The translations under genes and the position numbers were made by a program. Positions 1 to 12,474 of a stretch of DNA of 64,000 bases are shown in pieces. Within the stretch, counting starts at the first letter, position 1. Every line of letters begins with the position of its first letter. The DNA is from Gemmatimonadota bacterium (GTDB taxonomy: Bacteria > JAAXHH01): assembly GCA_009841265.1 (NCBI GenBank), contig VXMB01000009.1, forward strand, positions 93,951-157,950. Reading direction: 5' to 3'. Under the pieces are notes generated by a model. It saw only the letters and a program-made list of their open reading frames with translations, ran no database searches and was not told the DNA's origin.

Positions 1-2279
1 AACTCTCCGAGCAGACCTTCGTAGTCGATGATGAATCCGTGCTCCTTCTCGATGCCGTCCTCCTCGAAGAGCCGGTTCACGCGCATGATCGCCTGCAGAA
101 GGTTGTGCTCTCGGATCGAGCGGCAGAGGTACAGCACCGTGTTCCGAGGTGCGTCGAAGCCGGTCAGGAGCTTTGAGACGACAATGAGGATCTCCGGATG
201 CTCCGAGTGCTTGAACGCGTCGATGATCTGACGGTTGTATTCGCCCTCCGTCCCGTACCGGTCCATCATGCGCTCCCAGAACGCGCCGACCACGCTCTTG
301 GAGTCGTGATCCACGTCCTCGTTGCCCTCGTGGTCGTCGGGAGGCGAGATGACGATCTCGCTAGTCACATGGCCGATCTCGTCGAGGATCTCCTTGTACC
401 GGCACGCAGCTGCCTTTGATGGTGCGACGAGTTGCGCCTTGAACCCACTGCCCTGCCAGTGTTGCCGGTAATGTTCGGAGATGTCGAACGCCCTGGCGTG
501 TATCGCCTGTTCGGTGCGTGCCAGCGCGTTCAAGCGGGAGTACTTCTGCTTCAGATCCGCCCGCTGTTGCTCGCTCAGGCCTTCGCTCAGTTTGTCGAAC
601 CAGGAGTCGATGGTTTCTGGGTTGATTTGCTGTTCGACGATCCTTCCTTCGTAAAGCAGGGAGACGACCGCCTCGTCCCGGACCGCTTGGTCGATCGCGT
701 ATCTGTGTATCAGTCCTCCGAAGGTGGTCAGGGTGTTCTTCTCCCTCTGCAGAAGAGGCGTTCCCGTGAAACCAAGGTAACAGGCCTTTCCAAGAATACG
801 TCGCATCTTGCCGGCCAACTGTCCGAACCCACCGTGCGATCCCGTCTGCGTACGGTGGCTTTCGTCTACCAGTACGAATACGTTGGGATCCTCATCGATC
901 ACCTGGCCGACGCGCGAAGCCGTGTCGAACTTGTTGATGATTGTCGTAACCAGCGGCGTCTTGTTCTGAATCAGGGAGATCAGGTGTGTGCCGGTCGTGG
1001 CCCGAACGGGTTCCATTTCGCACGACTTGAAGGTGTCCTTGATCTGCCGGTCTAGATCGTCACGGTCCGTAACAATGACAATGCGCGGGTTGGAGATCGT
1101 CTCTTCCAGGGCCAGCGCTTTGCCCAACATGACCATGGTAAGCGACTTACCGGTCCCGGGCGTGTGCCATATCACACCGCCCCTGCGGACATCCTGCAAA
1201 TCGAACTGCCTGACCCGTTCCACGGCTCTGCGCACGGCAAAGTACTGCTGGTGCCTGGCTATCTTACGTTCACCGCCATCGAACACGGTGAAACGCCGCA
1301 CAAGGTCCAGCAGGCGCTCGCGTCGGCACAGGGCGTAAAGCGCTTCGTCCTGCTCGGTGACCTGCCGTCCTTCTCCGGCGATAGCAGCCTCGTAGTGCGA
1401 CCGCGCAGAGGCGAGATTGCCCGAGTAGACCGCTTCGGCTTCGGCCACAGCCAGGGGTCGATCGACGAGATCTCGAAGGGGATCCCGGGGCGGATACTCC
1501 GCCTGTTCGTCCGGATCGAACACTACATCCGGTGGCAGTATTTCAGTATCCTCCAATTCGTTCTGCAGGGTAGCATGCGATCCCTCAACGGTAGTCTCCT
1601 CCTCCCGCCAGGTCTGCCAGAACCTACTCTGCGTGCCCACCGTCGCATAACGGGCCTCCCGTCGGTTCATGGACAACAGAAGCTGCGCGAAGTGGAACAG
1701 GTGTGGAATCTCGTCTTCTCTCTGGTATCCGATCAACTGGCTGTCGGCCTTCTTCAGACGCTCCGTCGGCCGCTTGTTCTCGATTACGATGAAGGGGATC
1801 CCGTTGACGAAGGCGACGATATCGCATCGGCGGGTCCTGGTACTGCTGGTCCGCTCCACCGTCATTTCAGCCGTCACGTGATAGGTGTTGTTGTCCGGAT
1901 TCTCCCAGTCGACGTAGCGGAAGGAATAGGATTTCGAATCGCCGTCGATGGTCTTGGTGATCGTCGTGCCGAGTACCAGCGTATCGTATACGTCCTGATT
2001 GGTTCCGCGCAGCCCCTTGAGCCGGTCCGGCGTCGGTTTCAGTCGTCGCATCGCCTCGTGGGCATCTTCGAGATTGAAGGGATACTCCTTGCCCCGGTGG
2101 GTAAAGCGGTTGAGCTTCAGAAGTTGATCAGCCAGTACGTCATCGAGCGTGACGTTGCGCAACCTGTCTCCGCGTAACCGCAACGCTTCTTCTGGAGAAA
2201 GTGGCGTAAAACCCATCGCAACCAGAAGATGCAGGGCCGGTATCTGGGACTGGTGTTTTTCAGTGGCGTCAAAGATCAT
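1..2279 (-). CDS. hsdR: Type I restriction enzyme R subunit HsdR, N-terminal ~760 aa; the C-terminus runs off the window start
   Basis: Reverse-strand translation from the ATG at 2279-2277 reads MIFDATEKHQSQIPALHLLVAMGFTPLSPEEA... Helicase motif I 'VIWHTPGTGKSLTMV' lies at ~1130-1180 and the DEAH box 'LVDESHRTQ' at ~840-900. The gene is absent from the ORF track because its stop codon is off-window. Confidence 0.9.
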   Translation of the reverse strand, partial: MIFDATEKHQSQIPALHLLVAMGFTPLSPEEALRLRGDRLRNVTLDDVLADQLLKLNRFTHRGKEYPFNLEDAHEAMRRLKPTPDRLKGLRGTNQDVYDTLVLGTTITKTIDGDSKSYSFRYVDWENPDNNTYHVTAEMTVERTSSTRTRRCDIVAFVNGIPFIVIENKRPTERLKKADSQLIGYQREDEIPHLFHFAQLLLSMNRREARYATVGTQSRFWQTWREEETTVEGSHATLQNELEDTEILPPDVVFDPDEQAEYPPRDPLRDLVDRPLAVAEAEAVYSGNLASARSHYEAAIAGEGRQVTEQDEALYALCRRERLLDLVRRFTVFDGGERKIARHQQYFAVRRAVERVRQFDLQDVRRGGVIWHTPGTGKSLTMVMLGKALALEETISNPRIVIVTDRDDLDRQIKDTFKSCEMEPVRATTGTHLISLIQNKTPLVTTIINKFDTASRVGQVIDEDPNVFVLVDESHRTQTGSHGGFGQLAGKMRRILGKACYLGFTGTPLLQREKNTLTTFGGLIHRYAIDQAVRDEAVVSLLYEGRIVEQQINPETIDSWFDKLSEGLSEQQRADLKQKYSRLNALARTEQAIHARAFDISEHYRQHWQGSGFKAQLVAPSKAAACRYKEILDEIGHVTSEIVISPPDDHEGNEDVDHDSKSVVGAFWERMMDRYGTEGEYNRQIIDAFKHSEHPEILIVVSKLLTGFDAPRNTVLYLCRSIREHNLLQAIMRVNRLFEEDGIEKEHGFIIDYEGLLGE

Positions 2280-2436
2280 GGGGGAGTCAACAGTTGGGGT
2301 GTCGTACGACCTACTAGCAGTTTGAAAACCGAGACAATCGGTTCTAAGTTCTTATGCTAGCATCGAGCTACTTGATATACAGAATATCGTGTGTAACCAT
2401 GGAAGGAATCCTGTCGTAGCAGCGACTATGAAAGAT

Positions 2437-2636
2437 CTACCGTCGCATGTGATCAGTCTTATAATCGTATCCTTCGTCCCATTCGAGTTTGCCGAACAGA
2501 TCAAGAATCCGTTTTTGCTCTCGACGTGTAATGAATTCCCGCAAGGCCTTTTCGAGAGTCGTGTCTTCGTCTGCCCACCACTGACGCGCATCGCCTGTTC
2601 GAGAAGATCGGGGTCTACTAATAGATATATCAACAT
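2437..2636 (-). pseudogene. Frameshifted remnant of a VapB-family (PF09957 / DUF2191-like) type II antitoxin, with no cognate vapC
   Basis: Reading frame A from the ATG at 2636 gives MLIYLLVDPDLLEQAMRVSGGQTKT. The +1 frame continues TTLEKALREFITRREQKRILDLFGKLEWDEGYDYKTDHMRR and stops at 2439-2437. Joined, the two pieces match the consensus of this antitoxin family (..DIDDELL.EAMRLTG.KTK.EAV.LALRELV.RR.Q..LLDL.GK..W.GDLD..R). A 1-nt deletion inside an Arg codon near ~2561 explains the frame change. Downstream there is only a 10-codon stub (MVTHDILYIK*) before hsdR. Confidence 0.6.
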
Positions 2637-2640
2637 ACCA

Positions 2641-5600
2641 CTATTCCTTGAAGAGATCGTTACTAGAACTGTCCGTACGCTCGCAGTTATAAAGGCCTGC
2701 TGGCGGTGTTTTCCATTTTCCTTTGGGTGGTTTGTCGCGAAAGTCTTGGCTTGGACGTTTTATCAGTTTTAGAGGATCGATTTCGGCAAATGCTATCGAA
2801 GCCTGCGGTTGTCCGTGCAGGTGGAATACTTCTCGCTCATAAGGTTTCTTGAACGGCATAAAGAAACTACTTCCGCCAAACTGACCGTTGTTTACCAGGA
2901 TAAATCCTTGGAACATGTGGTAATGAATCGCTTCAGCCATTCGGTCGAACGTGCCAACATCTTTGTTTAGCGCACAGATGATATAAAGGTCGCTTCTCGT
3001 ACGGAGATCCGCGGCAAGCGCTAGGTCGGTCGCATCGTAGCAGATTGAGGCTGTCAGACGAAGTGGTTGTTCTTCTTCGGCCTCTTTCTGCCAATGGTAG
3101 TTGATCAGCCATTGCGCAGGCCTAAATCCCACTGGTTTAGGATTTAGGTTACGTTCAGCCTCCGTAATATGTGCTTTTCCCTGTTCGATTCGTTTGATTT
3201 GGAGTCCATCTGATCTGCTCTTGTCAGGAATTAACCAGAGAGCACTGTTTATTATCGGAGAACCTGGATGTTGTTCTCTGTGGTGATAAACTTGACCTAA
3301 TAACACAATACACCGGTACTGCTGCACAAATGGCCGTAGATACGTATCTATATCTTGAGGATGAATGGAAAGTTCGGGGAACACAAGAAGGTTGATGCCC
3401 CTTTCATTAGGGCTGCTTATATGTGACTCGCGTACACGTAACTGTTGGTAGACACCTGCCATTATCGCAGATAGATGTTTCCGGCACTCGGACCGTATCT
3501 CATGCGCACAGAGTTCCGGTTTATCGCTGTGCAGGTTGTAATGTTCGAAACTGGGAACCACAGACTGAACGATCCCTATGCGGAGGGCGCGATCGCGTCT
3601 AATTTCATGGGGACGGTGTGGCAATGGTGCTGACTGTTCCAGAATCGTTGTGGATGTATACTGGCCCCTTTTTTTCCTGATGTGTTCCAGTTGGGATGAC
3701 ACTGTACTAAGTAGTTCGTGGACCGGGACGATATCGTGTCCCACCCCCGCCCCTGGCCAGCGCAACAGATCGAAGAGCAGATTCTCTGTGAACTGCGAGA
3801 TTGGTAGCCAATCTGGACCAAACGCATCTCGTCCTTGATAGCCGGCATATCTTTGCTGTTCCCAGTGCGAGACTGGCTTGGTATATCTCGGATAGCTTCT
3901 GCTGCGAGTTTTAGATATATTGAAAAGAAATTCGTTCGAACCTCGAAGAGCGTAACGAAGAAGGAGTCCTGTATTGAATCGTTGGCGATCTTCTGTGTTT
4001 ACACACCAATCGGGTGAATTGAAGAACGGAGTCATATATTCAATGATCGACTTATGTTCAATCGAATCATCTTCAATCTTACCGAATTCATAGCCTTTAG
4101 GTTTTGGATGCTTCAGAGAGAACCAAATACCGGCAGGAACTAACGGCTCAGCGAATATAGTCGAATCTTGACCGAGTAGGTATTCCGCCAGTAACAGGAG
4201 ATTCTCCTCCTCATGAAAAGGGTTTTCAGCATCGGGGGAGAGATCGGATAATGTCTGCTTCTTCGGAGATTCTCCATCAAGTGGGATTATAGACTGACCG
4301 TTGTTTTCAGACGGTTCGAGCCCAAGGTGAATGGCAAGTCGTCTAACATCTTTCCCTGATCCATGGCTGGCTGTTGTCCAGAGCTTCTTCGCGACCGAGG
4401 GTGAAATCGAATTCACTTTCAACAGATAATCTCGAGAAACCCGACTGGTAGACACAAGTTTATCAGGTTCTTGGATTCCAAATGCCGTGATAGTCTCTAC
4501 CAGGAATATCGAACGCTGCTCTAGGTCGTAGGAAACACTGCTGCGAATGAACTTGAGAAGTCTCCAATAGTCGCTTAGTAAGACTCCCCCTTTTCGGGTA
4601 TCTGTTGTGGGCACGGTCTCTGGAATTTGATTTCTTGTAGCGAGATAGAGAAATACCTGCTGCATTAAATACCAAGGAAATCGTGTACCGGACCTAGATT
4701 TCGTAATGAATGCAGAGACTATAGACTTTGCTTCTCTGACAAGCCTTTCATGGTATTTCTCAATGGAAACCTCGCTTGGCAGAGAATCAACTTCTACATC
4801 TGGGACCATACCGGTTTCCGTCGCTCCTACTCGAAAGAGTTCCGCAAGGCAATAAAGCATGATCTCCCGTCTCGACCCTCGAGTTTCTGGCGATTTCCAG
4901 CCTTGTCGGAGCAATTGTAGTACTTTATCCAAGAACTGGTGACTTGGATAGAAATCAAGAGCAATACGAAGTAAGCGTACATGCCCTGGATTCCTTATCC
5001 ACTCACCAATGAGTAGAGATGAAAAGGCTTTCCCCCTTTCATCCAATTGAGATTTCGTAAGTGCAAAGTTCGGGACAGATTCCGTGGTATCCTGGTCTTC
5101 ATCCATGGATTCAGGAATTTCCTCATCCGGTAAAAGCGGCCGCAGGGAGCGAAACGTGCGTCTCATCCTCCCGGCGGCGAAGCGCGCTACCGTTTCATCC
5201 GGCATGTCGGGAACCCCGTCCAGAGTTTCATCGAGTTTACCTATTTCCGAAGTAGCGTAGTGCTGCTGTCTGTAGAAGAAGCTTTCTATGGCACCGATTA
5301 ATTCGGTTCCGAGGGTTGCGTCAAATACACCGGAAGCCCGTTTCTGAATCCGCGCAGCTTCTTGCGATTGTTTAACGAGCAGACGATTTTCTCTGGTCTC
5401 GATTGTTGCGGTAGTCTTTTCATCGTCCGGAATTTCAAGACCGTGTGCCTCCGAAGAAAGAAGATCATTCATCGTCCTGATTACGTGTTGTCGTACATCT
5501 TCTTCGTTAATTGACAAACTCGTAGGAAAACTCATGACCAGTCGAAAATCGTCCACGTAGTAACAGATATCTTCCAGATACAATTGTTCCAATTCAGTTA

Positions 5601-6573
5601 CATCACCTAGTTTCTGTTGAACGAGTTTCTTTTTAAGTATTTGATCCAAATCGATAAGTGCGATGTTCGCGAAGAACCCACTGGCCACGAGTCCCTGCGG
5701 AAGAACCACCTCCATAAATCCATCATCGATGTCATTCGCTTCGGCATACCTTAGTGCTCTGTCTCGATCCGAGAAATGCCAGCGCCAATTCAAAACACGT
5801 TCAGCAAGATCGAAGAAAGAACTTTCATCCGATGATTCTTGAAACTCTCGTAGTTTTGGGTGCAACATTGAGGGACGCACCCGATCATAGAATTTCGATA
5901 AATCGGATTGAACTACCGCGACATCCAAGTCCTTGTTTTCACGCGACTTCAATTCGTTCTTTACGTGCCTTGGTCGCTCCAGAAACTTCCTATAGTCTTG
6001 GAAATAGCCGCGGTACAGTTTAGAACTTCCCCAGCGGTTCCTCAGGTTGGATTCCCCGACTTTATCGCAAAGTAGCCTGTGGCCGTACGCGAGGATCTTT
6101 TTTCGATTATTGCCCCTTGTCACGTCCAGACGGGGGTCACCAAGCCTAGTCTCAACTCGGTCCGCAAGGCAGAGCAAAATAGCAGTCGCCACAACCTGAT
6201 CTCCCAGATCAACGTGCGCAAGTGGACGGATGTAGTCCTTTTTCCTCTGATCCTTCTGACTCATAGGATTTGATTTTGACCTTATCTTCTTTACCCTTTC
6301 CGGTCTCCATCTTTCGTTCTCGTCGATCTCCCATCGTTGGTTCTTTGGAGCGGGTACGAACCTCAAGGGTCGAGGTTCCCACTGATCTGGCTTCTGCAGA
6401 CGAGCCTGTACTTCACCTAGGAACGAGGATACGCGCAATGATTGCATATCGATCCCAAGAGTATCGGCGTACCAGCTATGAGACCGCAGATAGGAAGATG
6501 TTTTCTTCCAAGCCTGCATCAGGACACATTCCATTCCGAGGTCCCTGAGGGTTGGTCTTAAAGTCTGTTGCAT
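2641..6573 (-). CDS. Defense-associated reverse transcriptase fused to a C-terminal nitrilase (C-N hydrolase) domain, 1310 aa; DRT type 1-like (UG1 class of UG/Abi RTs; UG5/UG6 cannot be excluded without alignment)
   Basis: The N-terminal ~420 aa carry ordered RT motifs: 'RPLRFVPAPK' (motif 1), 'IRPLAHVDLGDQVVATAILLCLADRVE' (motif 2), 'VVQSDLSKFYDRV' (motif A), 'VLPQGLVASGFFANIAL' (motif B') and 'CYYVDDFRLV' (catalytic YxDD). The middle ~550 aa are helical-repeat-like, with no catalytic motif. The C-terminal ~290 aa have the nitrilase Glu-Lys-Cys triad in context: 'LLVFPELSI', 'QGKAHITEAE', 'LTASICYDATD'. GC content (~45%) is clearly lower than the flanks. Confidence 0.85.
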   Translation of the reverse strand: MQQTLRPTLRDLGMECVLMQAWKKTSSYLRSHSWYADTLGIDMQSLRVSSFLGEVQARLQKPDQWEPRPLRFVPAPKNQRWEIDENERWRPERVKKIRSKSNPMSQKDQRKKDYIRPLAHVDLGDQVVATAILLCLADRVETRLGDPRLDVTRGNNRKKILAYGHRLLCDKVGESNLRNRWGSSKLYRGYFQDYRKFLERPRHVKNELKSRENKDLDVAVVQSDLSKFYDRVRPSMLHPKLREFQESSDESSFFDLAERVLNWRWHFSDRDRALRYAEANDIDDGFMEVVLPQGLVASGFFANIALIDLDQILKKKLVQQKLGDVTELEQLYLEDICYYVDDFRLVMSFPTSLSINEEDVRQHVIRTMNDLLSSEAHGLEIPDDEKTTATIETRENRLLVKQSQEAARIQKRASGVFDATLGTELIGAIESFFYRQQHYATSEIGKLDETLDGVPDMPDETVARFAAGRMRRTFRSLRPLLPDEEIPESMDEDQDTTESVPNFALTKSQLDERGKAFSSLLIGEWIRNPGHVRLLRIALDFYPSHQFLDKVLQLLRQGWKSPETRGSRREIMLYCLAELFRVGATETGMVPDVEVDSLPSEVSIEKYHERLVREAKSIVSAFITKSRSGTRFPWYLMQQVFLYLATRNQIPETVPTTDTRKGGVLLSDYWRLLKFIRSSVSYDLEQRSIFLVETITAFGIQEPDKLVSTSRVSRDYLLKVNSISPSVAKKLWTTASHGSGKDVRRLAIHLGLEPSENNGQSIIPLDGESPKKQTLSDLSPDAENPFHEEENLLLLAEYLLGQDSTIFAEPLVPAGIWFSLKHPKPKGYEFGKIEDDSIEHKSIIEYMTPFFNSPDWCVNTEDRQRFNTGLLLRYALRGSNEFLFNISKTRSRSYPRYTKPVSHWEQQRYAGYQGRDAFGPDWLPISQFTENLLFDLLRWPGAGVGHDIVPVHELLSTVSSQLEHIRKKRGQYTSTTILEQSAPLPHRPHEIRRDRALRIGIVQSVVPSFEHYNLHSDKPELCAHEIRSECRKHLSAIMAGVYQQLRVRESHISSPNERGINLLVFPELSIHPQDIDTYLRPFVQQYRCIVLLGQVYHHREQHPGSPIINSALWLIPDKSRSDGLQIKRIEQGKAHITEAERNLNPKPVGFRPAQWLINYHWQKEAEEEQPLRLTASICYDATDLALAADLRTRSDLYIICALNKDVGTFDRMAEAIHYHMFQGFILVNNGQFGGSSFFMPFKKPYEREVFHLHGQPQASIAFAEIDPLKLIKRPSQDFRDKPPKGKWKTPPAGLYNCERTDSSSNDLFKE

Positions 6574-6956
6574 GCCACTTGCCCTTAAAGGTGCGCTAGC
6601 GACTAGAATGGTTTAGCACTCTCAATTGGCTTATTGTGTTTTATCCCTTAGGACCGAATTGAGATCAGCTTGCCTATGTCACAATAACCGCTGAATACGG
6701 CTTTCTAAATTCCGATCGATTGCGCTGAGAAAGACGGTAGTGTTTTGCCGTGGTTTCTAAGCAACCAGTCTGTCGGCTTTCCACGGTCAAATCGCTATAT
6801 TGCCTCCTTAAGGTAATAACTTCGTAACAGCGGATATTTGATGTAATATCGAACTATTACTTTCCAATCTGCTGGTACGATAGGACATTCGTTGACATAG
6901 ATCGACTGGTACCGCACCCGTTTAAAAACGAATCAAGAATTGAGATTGCGTTCGCA
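6574..6956 (-). promoter_or_regulatory. 383-bp AT-rich non-coding leader upstream of the RT-nitrilase; a candidate promoter and/or structured ncRNA
   Basis: No ORF of 60 aa or more on either strand. It contains a perfect Shine-Dalgarno 'TAAGGAGG' (minus strand, ~6800) that is not followed by an ATG (only a TTG 12 nt downstream, opening a 44-codon frame). It also has 'ggtaccag' direct repeats and several short inverted repeats. Several other DRT types place a template ncRNA 5' of the RT. Confidence 0.3.
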
Positions 6957-7298
6957 CTACCACCTAAGTCGCTTACTATATGTATATCGCGATGGCTCAA
7001 ATTTACCATAATGCGCGAACTCGATCATTCTGACACATCCAAATACGATTTCGTGCAAGAATTCCACACTTACCAAGGGCATCTTAAAACTTCGTTGTTC
7101 TTCGATTAGGAAGTATCTCCAGTCGAACGAACCAATGTAATCATCACCTATCTTGTTTGGGTCGCCATCCAGATTTGTAAGGAAGTCCTGCAAAGTCTTA
7201 AACGGAAACGTCTTCCCCACAAATGCCTTGTAATCGGAATAGTACTCACGCAACGTTTCTTTGTCTTCCGATTCGAACAAATCGAACAGGATAGTCAA
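6957..7298 (-). CDS. Hypothetical protein, 113 aa with a TTG start; probably the C-terminal part of a ~204-aa protein whose frame is split from the upstream ORF
   Basis: Low-GC ORF reading MTILFDLFESEDKETLREYYSDYKAF... Its frame stays open upstream (WQKKVPRKHS) through the A8 tract. The TTG start at 7298-7296 overlaps the stop of the upstream ORF by 2 nt. No recognizable motif. Confidence 0.5.
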   Translation of the reverse strand: MTILFDLFESEDKETLREYYSDYKAFVGKTFPFKTLQDFLTNLDGDPNKIGDDYIGSFDWRYFLIEEQRSFKMPLVSVEFLHEIVFGCVRMIEFAHYGKFEPSRYTYSKRLRW

Positions 7299-7570
7299 CG
7301 AGTGTTTACGTGGTACTTTTTTTTGCCACGTACATACAAAAGTGCCTTGAACGACTCTTCAACGAGGAAATAACCAGCGACAACGTAACCCCAAGCCTGC
7401 GCCACCTCATGACTAGGTAGTAAATCAGGAGTCACAGGGCATTTCTTGTACTTTTCTTGCTCTTTCTCCAAAGCTGTATCTAACCCAGTCATCATCCAGA
7501 TCGGATCTTTGAAGCCTACAATCTGTTTTGTTGCCACGATAGAACTCCCTTTATCGTTCGTACCCATCAT
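7295..7570 (-). CDS. Hypothetical protein, 91 aa; probably the N-terminal part of the same ~204-aa protein
   Basis: Starts 6 nt after the hsdS stop (7577), so it is probably co-transcribed with hsdM-hsdS. Ends ...ALLYVRGKKKYHVNTR*, passing in frame through the A8 run. No recognizable motif. Confidence 0.5.
   Translation of the reverse strand: MMGTNDKGSSIVATKQIVGFKDPIWMMTGLDTALEKEQEKYKKCPVTPDLLPSHEVAQAWGYVVAGYFLVEESFKALLYVRGKKKYHVNTR
7316..7322 (-). other. A_AAA_AAG heptamer (dnaX-type -1 frameshift slippery motif) inside an A8 homopolymer, at the junction of the two small ORFs
   Basis: Minus strand reads ggc-aaa-aaa-aag-tac in the zero frame of the 91-aa ORF. A -1 slip (or one extra A) continues directly into the 113-aa ORF frame: ...VRGKKK|VPRKHSLTILFDLFE... 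Confidence 0.5.
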
Positions 7571-7576
7571 CCATCA

Positions 7577-8767
7577 TTACCTGCTATTGTTCCCATTTAG
7601 CAATATCTGAATTAGTCCGCGTTTTTGATTCTTCAGAGCACGTACCTCTTTATCCACACACTTAATTTCATCCTTAAAAGCGTCGAGTAAGTCAGCCTGC
7701 TTTTCCTGAAGTTTAATAGGTGGCAAGAAGATTCTGATTTTCGAAAATGCGGGGAATTTCAAATTCCATGTATCACTCGTTAGGCCCTGTGAATACCGTT
7801 GGAAATCGAATACCATTCGACGGGCTTTAAACAGATGGGAAGCATAGCGTGCTATAATCTTACTCTGATCGGGTGTGACGACAGTATAAGCAGGGCTGAC
7901 GATTCCACGAAGTGCTGAAAGACCTGATACTCCCTGCCACATTCGCATAGTGTTATATCCGAGATCACCCCGCAAAATCAGTTTGTACCGTGACTTATCT
8001 TTGGTAGAAGTGTCTTTCCGGTCGACCTCGTTACGGTCAATAACTCCTTCAGACATAGTGATGCTTAATAACGTATCCCAACTATTACCTGTTTGAATGC
8101 GCTCACGGAACAGATCACCCAACTCTACCTCAAGCCAAGTTCTAGGGTGCCCCGGAGAGGAAGGATGGCAGGGATCAAAAAAACCTTGGCTGACTAATCT
8201 GTATTGTACTGTCTTGGCCTGCCTCAATGCCTCCAACTTCTCAGTCGCCTCATCCCACGTTCGCAGTATTTCCCCAATCTTACGTTGCTCGGAAACTGGC
8301 GGTAGAAACACCGAGACCCTGGCGAGCTCCGCCTCGTGGATGTGAACAACAGAGTGCCCCTTGCCCAACCTCGACTTCTGCCTGACCGCGTCATCCGCAT
8401 TCAGCGCATGGGCCAGGAAGGTCGGATCTTGTCCATGTCCGCGTAGGATAATCGTATCTCCTCCTGCAACCGCGGTACCATTCCCCAACCATGCGACGGA
8501 CTTGCCGATTTCCCCGGCGGTTTCTCCCGAAGACGCGAAGATGATGTCGCCGTGGTGCAACTGCGTCGCTCTTCTTGCCGTATCCTCGGATACGAACGAG
8601 GTAAGTTCGTCGGTCACGTCGCCGTAGGTCGTGTAGAGATCGCCGTACCTCAGACAGGGAATTCCAGATTGAACCAGATCAGCTCTGGTTATGCCGCGTC
8701 CCTTGATGAACTTGCCCAGGTCTGACAGGCAAATCCTACCTTCTCGATGTATTGGAACCTTTTCCAT
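7577..8767 (-). CDS. hsdS: Type I R-M specificity subunit HsdS, 396 aa, two target-recognition domains
   Basis: MEKVPIHREGRICLSDLGKFIKG... (target-recognition domain 1); central conserved 'VFLPPVSEQRKIGEIL...LEALRQ'; C-terminal 'IFLPPIKLQEKQADLL...LKNQKRGLIQILL'. The 3' half is low-GC. Confidence 0.85.
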   Translation of the reverse strand: MEKVPIHREGRICLSDLGKFIKGRGITRADLVQSGIPCLRYGDLYTTYGDVTDELTSFVSEDTARRATQLHHGDIIFASSGETAGEIGKSVAWLGNGTAVAGGDTIILRGHGQDPTFLAHALNADDAVRQKSRLGKGHSVVHIHEAELARVSVFLPPVSEQRKIGEILRTWDEATEKLEALRQAKTVQYRLVSQGFFDPCHPSSPGHPRTWLEVELGDLFRERIQTGNSWDTLLSITMSEGVIDRNEVDRKDTSTKDKSRYKLILRGDLGYNTMRMWQGVSGLSALRGIVSPAYTVVTPDQSKIIARYASHLFKARRMVFDFQRYSQGLTSDTWNLKFPAFSKIRIFLPPIKLQEKQADLLDAFKDEIKCVDKEVRALKNQKRGLIQILLNGNNSR

Positions 8768-8878
8768 ATTCGACCTTAAGTTTCCCTTCGATTTGCGCTG
8801 TCAGGTAATCCTTTACATCTGCCTCGATCCGAACTTGTAAGCATCTCCGACCGAGTTGCTCATTCGGTTACTTCGCCC

Positions 8879-10396
8879 TCAGACCTCAACACCAAGCTCC
8901 TTGAGATATTGCTTCATCCGCTTGCGCACTTCGACCAGTTCGGCTTCGATCTGGTCGATCTCCTTCTGGACAGCGGCTACGTCGATCTCTTCCTCCGGCT
9001 CGAAGGTATCGACGTAGCGGGGGATATTGAGATTAAAATCGTTTTCGACAATTTCCTCCGGACTGGCCACGTGGGCATATTTCTCGGTTTCGGTCCGCGT
9101 CCGGAACGTCTCCAAGACCCTTTCGAGATGTCCTTCATCCATGACGTTCTGCGTCTTGCCCGGGATGAATTCCTTGCTGGCGTCTATGAACAGCACGTCC
9201 TTCCGGTCTTTGTTTTTTCCGCCCTCCTCACGCGACCGGTCGAAGACCAGGATGGCCACGGGAATGCCCGTCGTGGTGAAGAGGTTCGCGGGCAGGCTGA
9301 CCACGGCGTCGAGCAGGTTTCCTTCGATCAGCGCCCGGCGGATCCGGCCTTCGGCGCCGCCCCGGAACAGCACGCCGTGCGGAACGATCACTGTGACACG
9401 GCCGCTGCCCCGCTTGGCGATCTCGATCATGTGCGTGATGAAGCCGAAGTCAGCCTTCGACTTGGGCGGCACGCCGCGCCAGTACCGGGCGAAGGGATCG
9501 TTCGGCGCATTCTCCGCACCCCATTTGTCCAGCGAGAAGGGGGGATTGGCCACCACTACGTCGAACTTCATCAGGTGATCTCCCTCGACGAGGGCCGGGC
9601 TGTTGAGCGTGTCGCACCATTCGATGCGCGCGGCGTCCTTCTCGTGCAGGAACATGTTCATCCGTGCCAGGGCCCAGGTCGCCCCGTTGACTTCCTGACC
9701 GAAGAGGGCGTAGTTGCCCGAATCGACTTCGTTGGCTGCGCGGATCAGCAGCGAACCAGAACCGCAGGCCGGGTCGCATATCGTGTTGCCGGGTTTCGGG
9801 GCAGCAAGACCGGCGAGCAGCCGGGATATAGCGGCCGGCGTGTAGAATTCGCCGGCCTTCTTGCCGGCGTCTGAAGCGAAGCGCGATATGAGGTAGAGGT
9901 AACACTCCCCTATTACGTCTTCGGACACCTTCGACGGGCGCAGATCGAGAGCCGGATTGGCGAAATCCTCGAGGAGGTTGACGAGGCGCCGATTACGGTC
10001 CTTCACCTGACCGAGGTTGGCTTCCGAGTTGAAGTCGATGTTGCGGAAAACGCCTTCGAGCTTCGAACGATTCGCGTCCTCGATCTTCTCCAGGGCGATG
10101 TTAATCAACTCGCCGATATTCGCTTCTCCGCGCCGTTCATACAAATCGTAGAAACTTGCGCCGTCGGGCAGGACGAAACGCTCGCGTTCCAGTCTGCGAC
10201 GGATCCTAACCTCGTCGTCCCCGTATCGCTGGCGGTAGCTTTCCACATGGTCGTTCCACAGGTCCGAGATGTACTTGAGGAACAGCGTCACGAGGATGTA
10301 GTCCTTGTATTGACCGGCATCGACGACGCCCCGAAAGGTGTCACAGGCGGCCCAGGCGGTCTGGTTGACCCGCTGCTGCATGGTCTGGTTTGTCAT
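8879..10396 (-). CDS. hsdM: Type I R-M N6-adenine DNA methyltransferase subunit HsdM, 505 aa
   Basis: N6_Mtase motifs: 'ICDPACGSGSLLIRA' (AdoMet binding, motif I) and 'VVANPPFSLDKW' (motif IV, NPPF). HsdM-like N-terminus 'ILVTLFLKYISD'. Confidence 0.9.
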   Translation of the reverse strand: MTNQTMQQRVNQTAWAACDTFRGVVDAGQYKDYILVTLFLKYISDLWNDHVESYRQRYGDDEVRIRRRLERERFVLPDGASFYDLYERRGEANIGELINIALEKIEDANRSKLEGVFRNIDFNSEANLGQVKDRNRRLVNLLEDFANPALDLRPSKVSEDVIGECYLYLISRFASDAGKKAGEFYTPAAISRLLAGLAAPKPGNTICDPACGSGSLLIRAANEVDSGNYALFGQEVNGATWALARMNMFLHEKDAARIEWCDTLNSPALVEGDHLMKFDVVVANPPFSLDKWGAENAPNDPFARYWRGVPPKSKADFGFITHMIEIAKRGSGRVTVIVPHGVLFRGGAEGRIRRALIEGNLLDAVVSLPANLFTTTGIPVAILVFDRSREEGGKNKDRKDVLFIDASKEFIPGKTQNVMDEGHLERVLETFRTRTETEKYAHVASPEEIVENDFNLNIPRYVDTFEPEEEIDVAAVQKEIDQIEAELVEVRKRMKQYLKELGVEV

Positions 10397-10401
10397 TTTT
10401 T

Positions 10402-11088
10402 CTACCTTTCCTCAATCAAGCCTGATTCGTTATCTGCTATCTGATCTCCAATACATCCTTTGAGAAGCAATCGGTTTAAGTCTCTTCGCCTGTCCGCAGC
10501 GAGTACGGTCAACGCGTGTTCGCGTTCTGCCAGACCGTCCAGGGTCGTAATCTTGCGTTGCAATTCAAGCGAAGGGATTTTGATTTCCAGACTCTCGACG
10601 CTGGACCGCGACACCATGCGTATGGTCGTCTTCAAAGCGACACGATCGAAGTATCGCTGGGATGGGGTTAGGTTGATGATCCATGCAAGGTATTCGGGTT
10701 GGATGAGGTCTGTTATAGGGCGCAAGACGTAAAGCGGTAACACGGCCACGGCCCTTTCGGTGAATCGTCCATCGAGCGCTACAGCTATATTCCTATCACC
10801 CCTGGATCGAAACAGCACGTCGCCTTGACCGACTAAGAATCTGTCCGTTTGACCTTTGAATTCGACACGGGTCAATCTTGCGGGCGCTATCTTGCCGTTT
10901 TGCGGAAAGTCGCCCAGTTGTATTGCCAGCGAACCGCTATGTGTTGCAGGTTGAAGGCGGCCACGGGCTGTGTACCCGCTATGGACGGAACAAATATCGC
11001 CAACGCGCTTATGTAATAAATGATATTTCATGAATACAGAATGTATATACCGGAGTTGATTTGTCAATAAAAAATCGTAGTTGGTCAA
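10402..11088 (-). CDS. Half-size HsdS-like specificity protein (one target-recognition domain plus one conserved coiled region), 228 aa. The true start is probably the internal ATG at 11030 (MKYHLLHKRVGDI...).
   Basis: 'VGDICSVHSGYT' is an N-terminal motif typical of target-recognition domains. The conserved 'IKIPSLELQRKITTLDGL...' parallels the 'LPPxxEQxKI' repeats of the full hsdS. It ends 5 nt before the hsdM start. Confidence 0.65.
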   Translation of the reverse strand: MTNYDFLLTNQLRYIHSVFMKYHLLHKRVGDICSVHSGYTARGRLQPATHSGSLAIQLGDFPQNGKIAPARLTRVEFKGQTDRFLVGQGDVLFRSRGDRNIAVALDGRFTERAVAVLPLYVLRPITDLIQPEYLAWIINLTPSQRYFDRVALKTTIRMVSRSSVESLEIKIPSLELQRKITTLDGLAEREHALTVLAADRRRDLNRLLLKGCIGDQIADNESGLIEER

Positions 11089-11352
11089 TTATAGAGATTA
11101 ATATACTGTGTTTCTTGTCTGAGGCAAGGAGAAAAGGAGATTGGAGATCGTTTAAGAGGTCGGAAGGGAACTCGAAGGTAATGAATCGTGCTTACGTAGA
11201 GGTAATTTGGGTATCTACGGCCTCATATCAGAAAAACCGCAATTAGTTTCTGGAACGTGCTGTGTTTATCTAAAATGTACATGAACCTGTATTGTGAATA
11301 TCGGGATGATAACCGATAACACGTCGGTTCCTTGACGGTCGTTGGTGCGTCT
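11089..11352 (-). promoter_or_regulatory. AT-rich boundary and likely promoter region of the R-M/defense operon; a minus-strand TATAAT lies at 11149-11154
   Basis: A sharp GC drop between the PhyH-family gene's stop (11353) and the hsdS-half start. Minus strand reads '...ctctataattgaccaactacgattttttattgacaaatc...'. Confidence 0.3.
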
Positions 11353-12474
11353 CTAGTAGCTGTCAACGCCACGCACCTCATCGGACCAGTCCCGCCAGAT
11401 GTCAATATTCGTGGGGTCCGTCATGAGCGGATCCGGGAGGGATTCCGGCGTTTTGAGGAAGCCGTAGATGGTCGCCTGGCGGATGAGGTCGGCCGACGTA
11501 TTCTGCCCGGCGATGTGCAGGATCTTGGTGTGCCACAGGACCGCCGTGCCGGCTGGACCGTGACAATCGACGGGCCGGGTATCCCGCTTGATGCGCTGGA
11601 TGACGGGATCGTTGTAGCCGGGTTTGCGTCCCGCCAGGTGTTCGTCCATATGCTTTGCGCCTTCGAGAAAGGCCTGCCACTGCGCGCGCCAGATCCGGCT
11701 GTGGCTTCCCGGCCAAACCGTGAAGCCGCCGGAGTCGGGCGGCAGGTCGTCGACATAGGCGGTCACCTGAAACCGGACGCGTCCGTAGCAGGCGCCGTCC
11801 GTATGGGCGCCGCGGTAGTCCGGACCAGGAGACGGGCTGCCCGGCAGGGTGCAGTACAGGCCACGCGTCCCTTGCCCGGTGGACCACACCGGACCCGTCC
11901 TGGGCAGAAGCAGCGCTTCTTCCGTGGTGAAGGATCCCTTCTCGGGCCATCGCCCGGTCTCTTCGATCCCGTGGGTGGCCAGCCCGCCCACCATGTCGTC
12001 GGACATGAAGCACGGCCCCGTCGTCATGCCGGAGTCATCCACTCCGGCGGGCCAGACCACTGTGCCCTTTCCCAGCAATTGCTCGGCCACCTGCCAAAGA
12101 GCCCGGGGGGCCAGGTCGAGCATGAAGGGCTCAGCGCCGTTGCGGACATAGAAGCGGTGGCCTTCGGTGAAGAAATAGGGGTCGCCGCCGATCTCGGGCC
12201 GCTTCGCATTAAGTTGACCGCTTACTTCGTCGTTGAAAGGCGCCCAGGTGGTGGGATCGCCGCGTTTCATAGCGGGGTGGTGTGTCTCCACTGCGTCCCA
12301 CAGTGCTTCCCTGGCCTGGCGGCATAGTTCAAGGTCGAGCACGGCGGGCAGCACGAGGAAACCGTCGCGCTTGAAGCGGGCGATCTGGCTCGTGGTCAGG
12401 AGCGGGACTTGATTTAAGCCCGGTTCGGCTGGCGTTGGTCGCATTGGTTTTTTACCTCCATCTACTTCCGTCAT
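11353..12474 (-). CDS. Phytanoyl-CoA dioxygenase (PhyH) family Fe(II)/2-oxoglutarate oxygenase, 373 aa
   Basis: N-terminal 'TSQIARFKRDGFLVLPAVL'; metal-binding 'GAHTDG' and a distal His in 'VLWHTKILHIAG'. Confidence 0.7.
   Translation of the reverse strand: MTEVDGGKKPMRPTPAEPGLNQVPLLTTSQIARFKRDGFLVLPAVLDLELCRQAREALWDAVETHHPAMKRGDPTTWAPFNDEVSGQLNAKRPEIGGDPYFFTEGHRFYVRNGAEPFMLDLAPRALWQVAEQLLGKGTVVWPAGVDDSGMTTGPCFMSDDMVGGLATHGIEETGRWPEKGSFTTEEALLLPRTGPVWSTGQGTRGLYCTLPGSPSPGPDYRGAHTDGACYGRVRFQVTAYVDDLPPDSGGFTVWPGSHSRIWRAQWQAFLEGAKHMDEHLAGRKPGYNDPVIQRIKRDTRPVDCHGPAGTAVLWHTKILHIAGQNTSADLIRQATIYGFLKTPESLPDPLMTDPTNIDIWRDWSDEVRGVDSY

Follow-up and report, generated by a model that had tools for sequence, protein, structure and literature searches.

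A probable recent indel in an eight-adenine tract disrupts a HEPN-like gene beside Type I restriction-modification genes in a Gemmatimonadota bacterium

Two small open reading frames (ORFs) that adjoin one another in a 64,000-nt stretch of DNA from a Gemmatimonadota bacterium (hereafter, the window) make up, as judged from their homologs, the 5' and 3' parts of one gene (X), which is broken at a run of eight adenines (A8). The explanation that we favour, at a probability of roughly 0.7, is that a recent and genuine homopolymer indel inactivated, or nearly inactivated, this HEPN-like gene, which is associated with restriction-modification (R-M) genes. In this scenario, loop codons for R-G-K-K-V-P-x-K-H would have become an 8-A tract in this Gemmatimonadetes lineage, probably by a change from A6 to A8 or from A9 to A8, which would have left the tract out of frame by +2/-1. 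Standard decoding would then yield an 80-aa N-terminal fragment, and because this fragment ends before an invariant histidine of the family, X was most likely inactivated recently. A trace of full-length protein by bypass is possible; it would at most be adventitious and would arise from -1 slippage on an A_AAA_AAG heptamer or from RNA polymerase adding one A.

The arrangement described in the sequence-only reading, namely a 91-aa and a 113-aa ORF that meet at an A8 run with a zero-frame A_AAA_AAG heptamer and an open -1 frame, was confirmed, and all of its elements lie on the minus strand. ORF1 (7570..7295, minus strand, 91 aa) begins with an ATG that follows the hsdS stop codon (7577) after 6 nt, as had also been noted, and ORF2 (7298..6957, minus strand, 113 aa) begins with a TTG. 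At the A8 tract (7317..7324, minus strand; T8 on the plus strand), which would be in frame as A6 or A9, the zero-frame codons are cgt ggc aaa aaa aag tac cac gta aac act cgt TGA, with the stop codon 20 nt past the run, and the heptamer, as read from the sequence (7316..7322, minus strand), stands in the phase of a canonical -1 slippery site. Through the run, the -1 frame remains open (...YVRGKKK/VPRKHSLTILFDLFE...) and gives a fusion of 204 aa when read from the ATG.

The true start of X is likely GTG 7537 and not ATG 7570, because a Shine-Dalgarno-like AGGGAG (7545..7550, minus strand, read from the sequence) is placed 7 nt upstream of this GTG, because the resulting N-terminus (MATKQIVGFKDP) agrees with those of the homologs (MATNQTIDFKDP), and because NCBI annotates the 80-aa form (MYD25235.1, locus tag F4X08_05435, 'Gemmatimonadetes bacterium'). 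This 80-aa ORF was absent as a called gene from the contig index, though it was present in the protein collection. Read from the GTG, the 5' segment of X in the zero frame (7295..7537, minus strand) extends to the TGA at 7297-7295 and encodes 80 aa, or 91 aa if ATG 7570 is used instead; it codes for HEPN-like helices 1-2 up to R70-G-K-K-K, followed by a six-residue out-of-frame tail (YHVNTR). The 3' segment in the -1 frame (6957..7316, minus strand; 119 codons, VPRKHSL...SKRLRW, plus TAG) holds the invariant His79 and the remainder of the HEPN-like domain.

Searches with the fused product recovered uninterrupted homologs across the junction, of the kind that the sequence-only reading had suggested looking for, with matches to 394 protein clusters at 60-77% identity that covered about 94% of the fusion; the family itself comprises about 300 clusters. 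The homologs are mostly about 287 aa long with a few short forms, of which P0001 (193 aa) and P0059 (177 aa) share their final residue with the window copy. Among species-representative genomes, a scan yielded 53 X loci, 47 of which are read in a single frame, and no intact homolog needs a frameshift. Thus, relative to its intact homologs, the frame of the window copy is disrupted, as in a pseudogene. The homolog sequence at the junction is R-G-K-[Q/K]-V-P-x-K-H, in a loop 7 or 8 residues long, which is usually one residue shorter than, and sometimes equal to, the loop of the -1 fusion. Alignment of the window (CGT GGC AAA AAA +AA GTA CCA CGT AAA CAC TCG TTG) with its nearest DNA, locus L012 (CGC GAA AAG GAA GTA CCA CGT AAA CAC TCG TTG), marks A6 as the usual length, A9 as a tolerated extra lysine and A8 as out of frame. 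Among 23 homologs compared at the DNA level, the codons at this site are AAGCAA, AAGACA, AAGAAG, AAACAG and similar, and none of the 23 sites carries an A-run longer than five or a slippery heptamer.

These comparisons also bear on the reading that the two ORFs are separate small genes, coupled by termination-reinitiation at an overlapping TTGA and possibly assembling as a split protein. Such coupling would fit the overlap between the TGA of ORF1 (7297-7295) and the TTG of ORF2 (7298-7296), but the homologs are single polypeptides rather than pairs of separately conserved genes, and no two-gene arrangement was seen among the 53 loci. One of the two outcomes that would have refuted the sequence-only reading is thereby ruled out. 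In addition, neither product would have His79 in its native context, as the frame is lost before it in ORF1 and the start of ORF2 lies past it, and no Shine-Dalgarno-like motif was seen by eye before the TTG. We therefore consider two independent genes extremely unlikely.

Neither half had seemed to carry a recognizable domain, a statement that was borne out only in part: the fused protein has a Pfam HEPN match (PF05168) spanning the junction, but this match is weak (E 0.029) and, at 15 bits, stays below the cut-off of 22. Weak PF05168 matches in the same region were found in four of ten other members scanned, with P0128 reaching 22.6 bits against the gathering score of 22. AlphaFold modelled the fused window protein with a pLDDT of 76.5, which supplies the structure prediction that had been suggested for the fusion, and the long form with a pLDDT of 90.9; the long-form model has an additional beta-rich C-terminal domain that is absent from the window copy. 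The X family has the four-helix up-and-down HEPN fold. HEPN proteins have been defined by an Rx4-6H catalytic motif and an Ex3[KR] acidic motif (PMC3710099). The latter is present in the X family (VEESFK), with E60 invariant and K64 in at least 90% of the sequences. Arg70 is near-invariant and His78/79 invariant, at a spacing of 7, sometimes 8, residues, which falls outside the Rx4-6H range (PMC3710099). It is in this Arg...His loop that the frame breaks, and the zero-frame product is without the invariant histidine. PADLOC, NCBIfam and PDB sequence searches returned no match for X, and a profile search of 1.84 billion representatives retrieved only 298 proteins, many of them fragments. X is a short-form member of an uncharacterised HEPN-like defence-island family of about 190-290 aa.

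The same A8 allele was found wherever the locus could be read through in other assemblies. The exact hsdS protein together with the 113-aa ORF occurs on contigs of ENA SAMN12347671 (a 310-kb scaffold) and ENA SAMN12347686, as well as on Logan contigs of SRR9841447, SRR9841446 and SRR9841430. GGC-A8-GTACC was present in six of six independent metagenome assemblies, plus the NCBI Gemmatimonadetes MAG, and this broken gene is also matched by NCBI proteins 80 and 67 aa long. Over as much as 7.2 kb, L060, L061/L065, L066 and L068 were identical to the window (0 mismatches), and L067, for which the comparison was limited to the tract, carries A8 too. The break is real in the population DNA and fixed at the consensus level.

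Identity of the allele across six assemblies and the NCBI MAG makes an assembly artefact unlikely; a simple assembly error, together with a lack of homologs, had been named as one way in which the proposed frameshift could fail. Under such an artefact, the true genome would have A9 or A6 and X would be intact, which would fit a break exactly at the longest homopolymer of the window in an otherwise perfect X. Against this, different assemblers gave the same A8 from at least five runs or samples, and the intact version is absent from the protein collection. Moreover, contig names in SPAdes or short-read style suggest that the assemblies were built from short reads, which rarely miscount eight A's. 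Overall, we judge a sequencing or assembly artefact to be very improbable.

The second proposal of the sequence-only reading, an A-tract phase switch, is likewise unsupported. In such a switch, slipped-strand mispairing would turn X ON (A9 or A6) or OFF (A8) within the population, an idea to which a homopolymer in the coding region of a defence gene at an R-M locus lends itself, as does the fact that X is otherwise intact and that A8 is the longest homopolymer in the 64-kb window (just three runs reach at least 7) of a genome with 63% GC. However, the six assemblies, which come from different runs, all have A8, long contigs run unbroken through the tract, and no products of A6, A7, A9 or A10 alleles, and hence none in an ON state, were present in a collection of 15 billion proteins. 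Tract-length polymorphism, as expected at a phase-variable locus, was thus not seen at the consensus level. In addition, the homologs are without a tract at this site, and eight A's are short for efficient phase switching. The resemblance to phasevarions accordingly extends to a simple-sequence tract in a coding region of an R-M locus, whereas the tract of X is short, invariant in length in six assemblies, and situated in an accessory gene and not in mod, hsdS or hsdM. A phase-variable switch is therefore quite unlikely.

Three contigs (L062-L064) end before the run, two from another sample at 7338/7337, which is 13 nt away, and one at a distance of about 75 nt. Since none of these ends falls at the run itself, they do not indicate tract-length heterogeneity. 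A repeat common to the paralog of X (see below) was considered as their cause and rejected, as the copies share at most 13 identical bases.

With the A8 allele established, we asked what its heptamer and the adjacent sequence say about translation across the break. A_AAA_AAG occurs five times in the window, where 2.5 copies are expected, and at least five copies were found in 14 of 100 shuffles; its count is no higher than chance. A second in-phase copy lies at 6103-6097 within the intact neighbouring gene Drt1a, where the frame is unbroken. Moreover, any change in the length of the A-run within GGC AAA AAA GTA places A_AAA_AAG in the slippery phase automatically, so the phase of the heptamer is a by-product of an indel in lysine codons and no independent evidence for recoding.

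Directly 3' of the run, an imperfect RNA hairpin of 77 nt (7241..7317, minus strand) starts at the last A. It has a predicted stability of -27.8 kcal/mol (z -4.73; matched by 0 of 200 shuffles), which exceeds that of the equivalent region in 22 of 23 homologs (mean -15.8 kcal/mol), and the intact L012 has the same outer stem. Such a hairpin could stimulate slippage. Stimulators of -1 frameshifting usually lie about 5-9 nt downstream of the slippery site, whereas this hairpin begins inside the heptamer, with a spacer of 0 or less. No Shine-Dalgarno-like motif was seen by eye in the approximately 25 nt upstream of the heptamer, Rfam gave no match in positions 1-12000, and a scan for promoter and terminator consensus sequences revealed nothing relevant. 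On the plus strand, the complement of the hairpin followed by T8 resembles an intrinsic terminator.

The conserved frameshift signal of E. coli dnaX consists of a heptamer flanked by an upstream Shine-Dalgarno-like element and, about 6 nt downstream, a stem-loop. X shares with it the identical heptamer in the same phase, the open -1 frame and an RNA hairpin 3' of the site. In contrast to dnaX, the X site is without the upstream element by eye, its hairpin starts inside the heptamer, its arrangement is absent from all homologs examined, and its zero-frame product is a truncated fragment of a fold and not a second functional protein. In other words, a slippery heptamer in zero-frame phase and a meaningful -1 continuation, in which family homology goes on through 51 of 51 conserved residues, are both present, but conservation of the arrangement among homologs, a further hallmark of programmed -1 frameshifting, is not. 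A dnaX-type programmed frameshift, the other proposal of the sequence-only reading, is thus unsupported, as the homologs are without the slippery motif and none of them needs a shift.

A weaker form of this idea is functional low-level recoding, in which A8 would act as a 'savior indel' that throttles a potentially toxic HEPN effector and leaves a low dose, because a few percent of ribosomes slip by -1, helped by the 3' hairpin, or because the polymerase adds an A. The perfect in-phase heptamer with its open -1 frame, the significant hairpin, which is more stable than in homologs, the perfectly conserved downstream half and the fixation of A8 in all samples speak for it. A_AAA_AAG also belongs to the most shift-prone class of heptamers in E. 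coli, which counts against plain inactivation. Compensatory frameshifting and transcriptional slippage on poly(A) have been documented elsewhere (PMC5009743). On the other hand, recoding is without comparative support, since only one clonal population shows the arrangement; the indel by itself sets the phase of the heptamer, the hairpin starts inside the heptamer rather than at the usual spacing, its outer stem also occurs in an intact homolog, and an upstream Shine-Dalgarno-like element was not seen. In an E. coli reporter, slippage at unstimulated heptamers was only 2-10 times the background of about 0.055% (PMC4066793), well under 1%, and productive transcriptional slippage has been documented on runs of at least nine A or T (PMC5009743). 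The poly(A) genes of insect endosymbionts are a close parallel, as they too involve a poly(A) indel in a conserved gene of a bacterium that, in our case, is probably host-associated, and rescue by one extra A; those runs, however, are long, with slippage on nine A/T (PMC5009743), while X has eight A's in a genome of 63% GC. Taken together, functional recoding appears unlikely, and a recent inactivating indel is the better explanation of the break.

The coding sequence around the break shows few other changes. Using alignment columns that are at least 90% conserved without the window copy (n=80), the window X keeps 28 of 29 conserved columns before the break and all 51 of 51 after it, and dN/dS against its closest relatives is about 0.1 in both halves. 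Further lesions or relaxed constraint, which would be expected of an older pseudogene, were thus not observed, with 0 of 51 downstream conserved positions changed. This conservation, together with the low dN/dS, implies either that the lesion is very recent or that the downstream frame is still in use or leakily bypassed. A decaying pseudogene is expected to gain more lesions, and none were seen, which counts against inactivation; this point is answered by the complete absence of population variation, so that there has been no time for decay. The same MAG contains an intact short-form paralog (P0059, locus tag F4X08_06105) with 71% identity, and loss of the window copy may therefore cost little.

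The short form itself arises from a stop codon. The TAG of the window copy (6957..6959, minus strand) corresponds to an AAG (Lys) codon in the long-form homologs, as seen in a DNA alignment. The AAG-to-TAG change is common to the window copy, L001 and L002 and removes the C-terminal beta-rich domain of about 95 aa. Because dN/dS among these three is about 0.1, the HEPN-only short form appears to be functional.

Other members of the family are broken as well, in different ways. L054 and L056-L059 have frameshifts at other, non-homopolymer positions, and an insertion interrupts the X gene of L042. In the representative library, many N-terminal fragments end near profile positions 53-78, and several of them lose homology within the R...H loop in which the window copy is broken. 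Such fragments might have marked a conserved recoding site, an idea that was dropped, as the three that were read at the DNA level differ in their lesions. A 1-nt deletion within GGAAAG(G)AAG breaks L069, which has no slippery heptamer there; in L070, on a contig of 2x coverage with further shifts, 1 nt is inserted and the frame moves the opposite way; and L071 is truncated, with unrelated sequence after RGKPV. As these are different lesions within the same loop and without the slippery motif, an indel or rearrangement hotspot in the purine-rich R...H loop fits better than a shared programmed event, and breaks appear to be enriched in this loop.

With regard to its genomic context, X lies immediately downstream of hsdS, the Type I specificity subunit (7577..8767, minus strand; Pfam Methylase_S, PADLOC Specificity_I 198 bits), which is preceded by hsdM, the Type I methyltransferase (8879..10396, minus strand; Pfam N6_Mtase 327 bits, and HsdM_N). 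No hsdR was found in the island of the window. Downstream of X, after a 383-nt spacer, follows Drt1a (2641..6573, minus strand; PADLOC Drt1a 1066 bits), a reverse transcriptase-nitrilase of DRT type 1. Linkage to R-M-type genes is frequent in the family, as X stands directly 3' of such genes in 16 of the 53 genome-scan loci, plus the window and L001-L002. It follows hsdS in the window, L025, L029 and L030, hsdM in L024, a Type ISP gene in L005, and MmeI-type enzymes in L011, L015, L017, L022 and L039 and, by Pfam, in two more. It takes this position in SNF2/DUF1156 DISARM-like loci in L001, L002 and L057 as well, and L012 has a similar DISARM-like locus in which X is farther from the SNF2 gene. 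Because members so often lie directly 3' of R-M genes, X is plausibly an accessory of R-M-type systems. The sequence-only reading had proposed an accessory component of an R-M/DRT island, and the R-M half of this proposal holds up, but the DRT half does not: a general role of X as a DRT1 partner was rejected, as a Drt1a-like gene follows X in only 2 of about 55 loci (the window and L006), and the PADLOC models give no match for X as a DRT1 component.

At least 16 HEPN clades have been linked to R-M systems, and R-M-linked HEPN proteins such as PrrC are proposed to form a second line of defence that is released once R-M is disabled (PMC3710099). X resembles PrrC of EcoprrI (hsdMSR) in its HEPN-type fold and in the position of its gene beside hsdM/hsdS, and differs in being small (190-290 aa) and without an ABC-ATPase domain. 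Compared to R-M-linked HEPN RNases in general, X has an Arg-His spacing of 7-8 instead of Rx4-6H, a beta-rich C-terminal domain of its own in the long form and no hsdR in the window island; it is known from sequence and predicted structure, and Pfam, NCBIfam and PADLOC hold no family model for it. By analogy, intact X would most likely be an RNase-type effector that is restrained by, or backs up, the adjacent R-M system.

The frameshift itself carries little weight, as it is a typical lesion of defence islands, whose dnaX-like motif follows from the position of the indel. For annotation, the two 'hypothetical' ORFs, here and in public assemblies with the same allele, are better given as a single disrupted gene. 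What interest remains is in the hairpin and in the unannotated HEPN-like family, which supplies a further candidate for the known class of R-M-linked HEPN effectors; a concrete protein to test would be P0059, the intact paralog, or P0002, a long form. A broader proposal, which we consider unlikely, joins two separate parts. First, A8 and the hairpin could form a lineage-specific throttle on expression, in which a 'savior' indel would all but silence a toxic R-M-linked HEPN-like effector, with a trace of active protein arising by -1 ribosomal or transcriptional slippage. Second, X may be an undescribed HEPN-like accessory of Type I, MmeI-type, Type ISP and DISARM-like systems, with an R-x7-H loop and a beta-rich C-terminal domain.

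The family may have spread horizontally among MAGs of many phyla. Copies of X outside the R-M-type loci adjoin AbiJ_NTD4, SocA_Panacea, patatin and Mrr_cat genes, which belong to defence or mobile elements, or unrelated genes, and the cargo that follows the short forms differs from locus to locus, with DRT1 in the window, CBASS in L001 and a ThsB-like TIR protein in L002.

The short forms of gene X, the HEPN-like gene whose frame is broken in the window at an A8 run (7317-7324, minus strand), all end at one and the same codon, where AAG has mutated to the nonsense codon TAG (window 6957-6959; about 10580 in homolog locus L001 and about 10532 in L002). In L002, the DNA past this stop remains similar to long-form coding sequence over about 40 nt. 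The defence cargo beyond the stop varies, comprising DRT1 in the window, CBASS with CD-NTase and Cap15 in L001, and a ThsB-like TIR protein in L002. Other members of family X (L007-L059; 45-77% amino-acid identity) occur in MAGs of many phyla, among them Acidobacteria, Dehalococcoidia, Alpha- and Gammaproteobacteria, Latescibacterota, Spirochaetia, Nitrospirales, Gemmatimonadetes and Binatia. Such identity across so many phyla suggests horizontal spread of the family inside one habitat type, probably marine sponge microbiomes.

Comparing N-terminal fragments of family X with the profile revealed that homology was lost most often at positions 53-78, an apparent break hotspot. Seven fragments lost it at positions 72-78, the same loop in which the frame of the window copy breaks, and the lesion differed in each of the three fragments examined (L069, L070 and L071). 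The zero-frame tail of ORF1 (RGKKKYH; window 7295-7324, minus strand) has R-x5-H spacing; this is a chance look-alike of the HEPN motif, with the expected following helix absent. Contigs L062/L063, from another sample, stop at the position equivalent to window 7338, 13 nt before the A-run, as does NCBI record VXVJ01000029.1; the Logan contig L064 stops about 75 nt before it. A repeat shared with a paralog was rejected as the cause of the L062, L063 and L064 ends, with at most 13 nt in common; strain-level divergence inside X is a possible explanation.

On the plus strand, the complement of the stable hairpin in X is directly followed by T8 (window 7241-7324). The hairpin alone gave a z of -4.73, and the arrangement resembles an intrinsic terminator that would stop antisense transcription through gene X.

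Gene X lies in a low-GC island (window 2300-11100; 49% GC versus 63% in the host) containing hsdM, hsdS and an additional half-size hsdS (10402-11088), and no hsdR was found within it. The 383-nt spacer between X and the reverse transcriptase-nitrilase gene drt1a (6574-6956), termed the RT leader in the sequence-only reading, matched no Rfam family. Neither Pfam nor PADLOC gave matches for the island ORFs left of Drt1a. One of these, a 94-aa ORF (2352-2636, minus strand) starting 4 nt past Drt1a, was not recognized as Drt1b; because its N-terminus (LVDPDLLEQAMRVSGGQTKT) resembles VapB-type antitoxins by eye, it may be a remnant. Besides the window, X adjoins Drt1a in a second case, a Candidatus Azotimanducaceae MAG (L006, 10001-12968), where long-form X is followed at once, with a 40-nt overlap, by a 722-aa ORF whose match to Drt1a is confined to the C-terminal two-thirds (profile positions 463-1088; PADLOC 540 bits).
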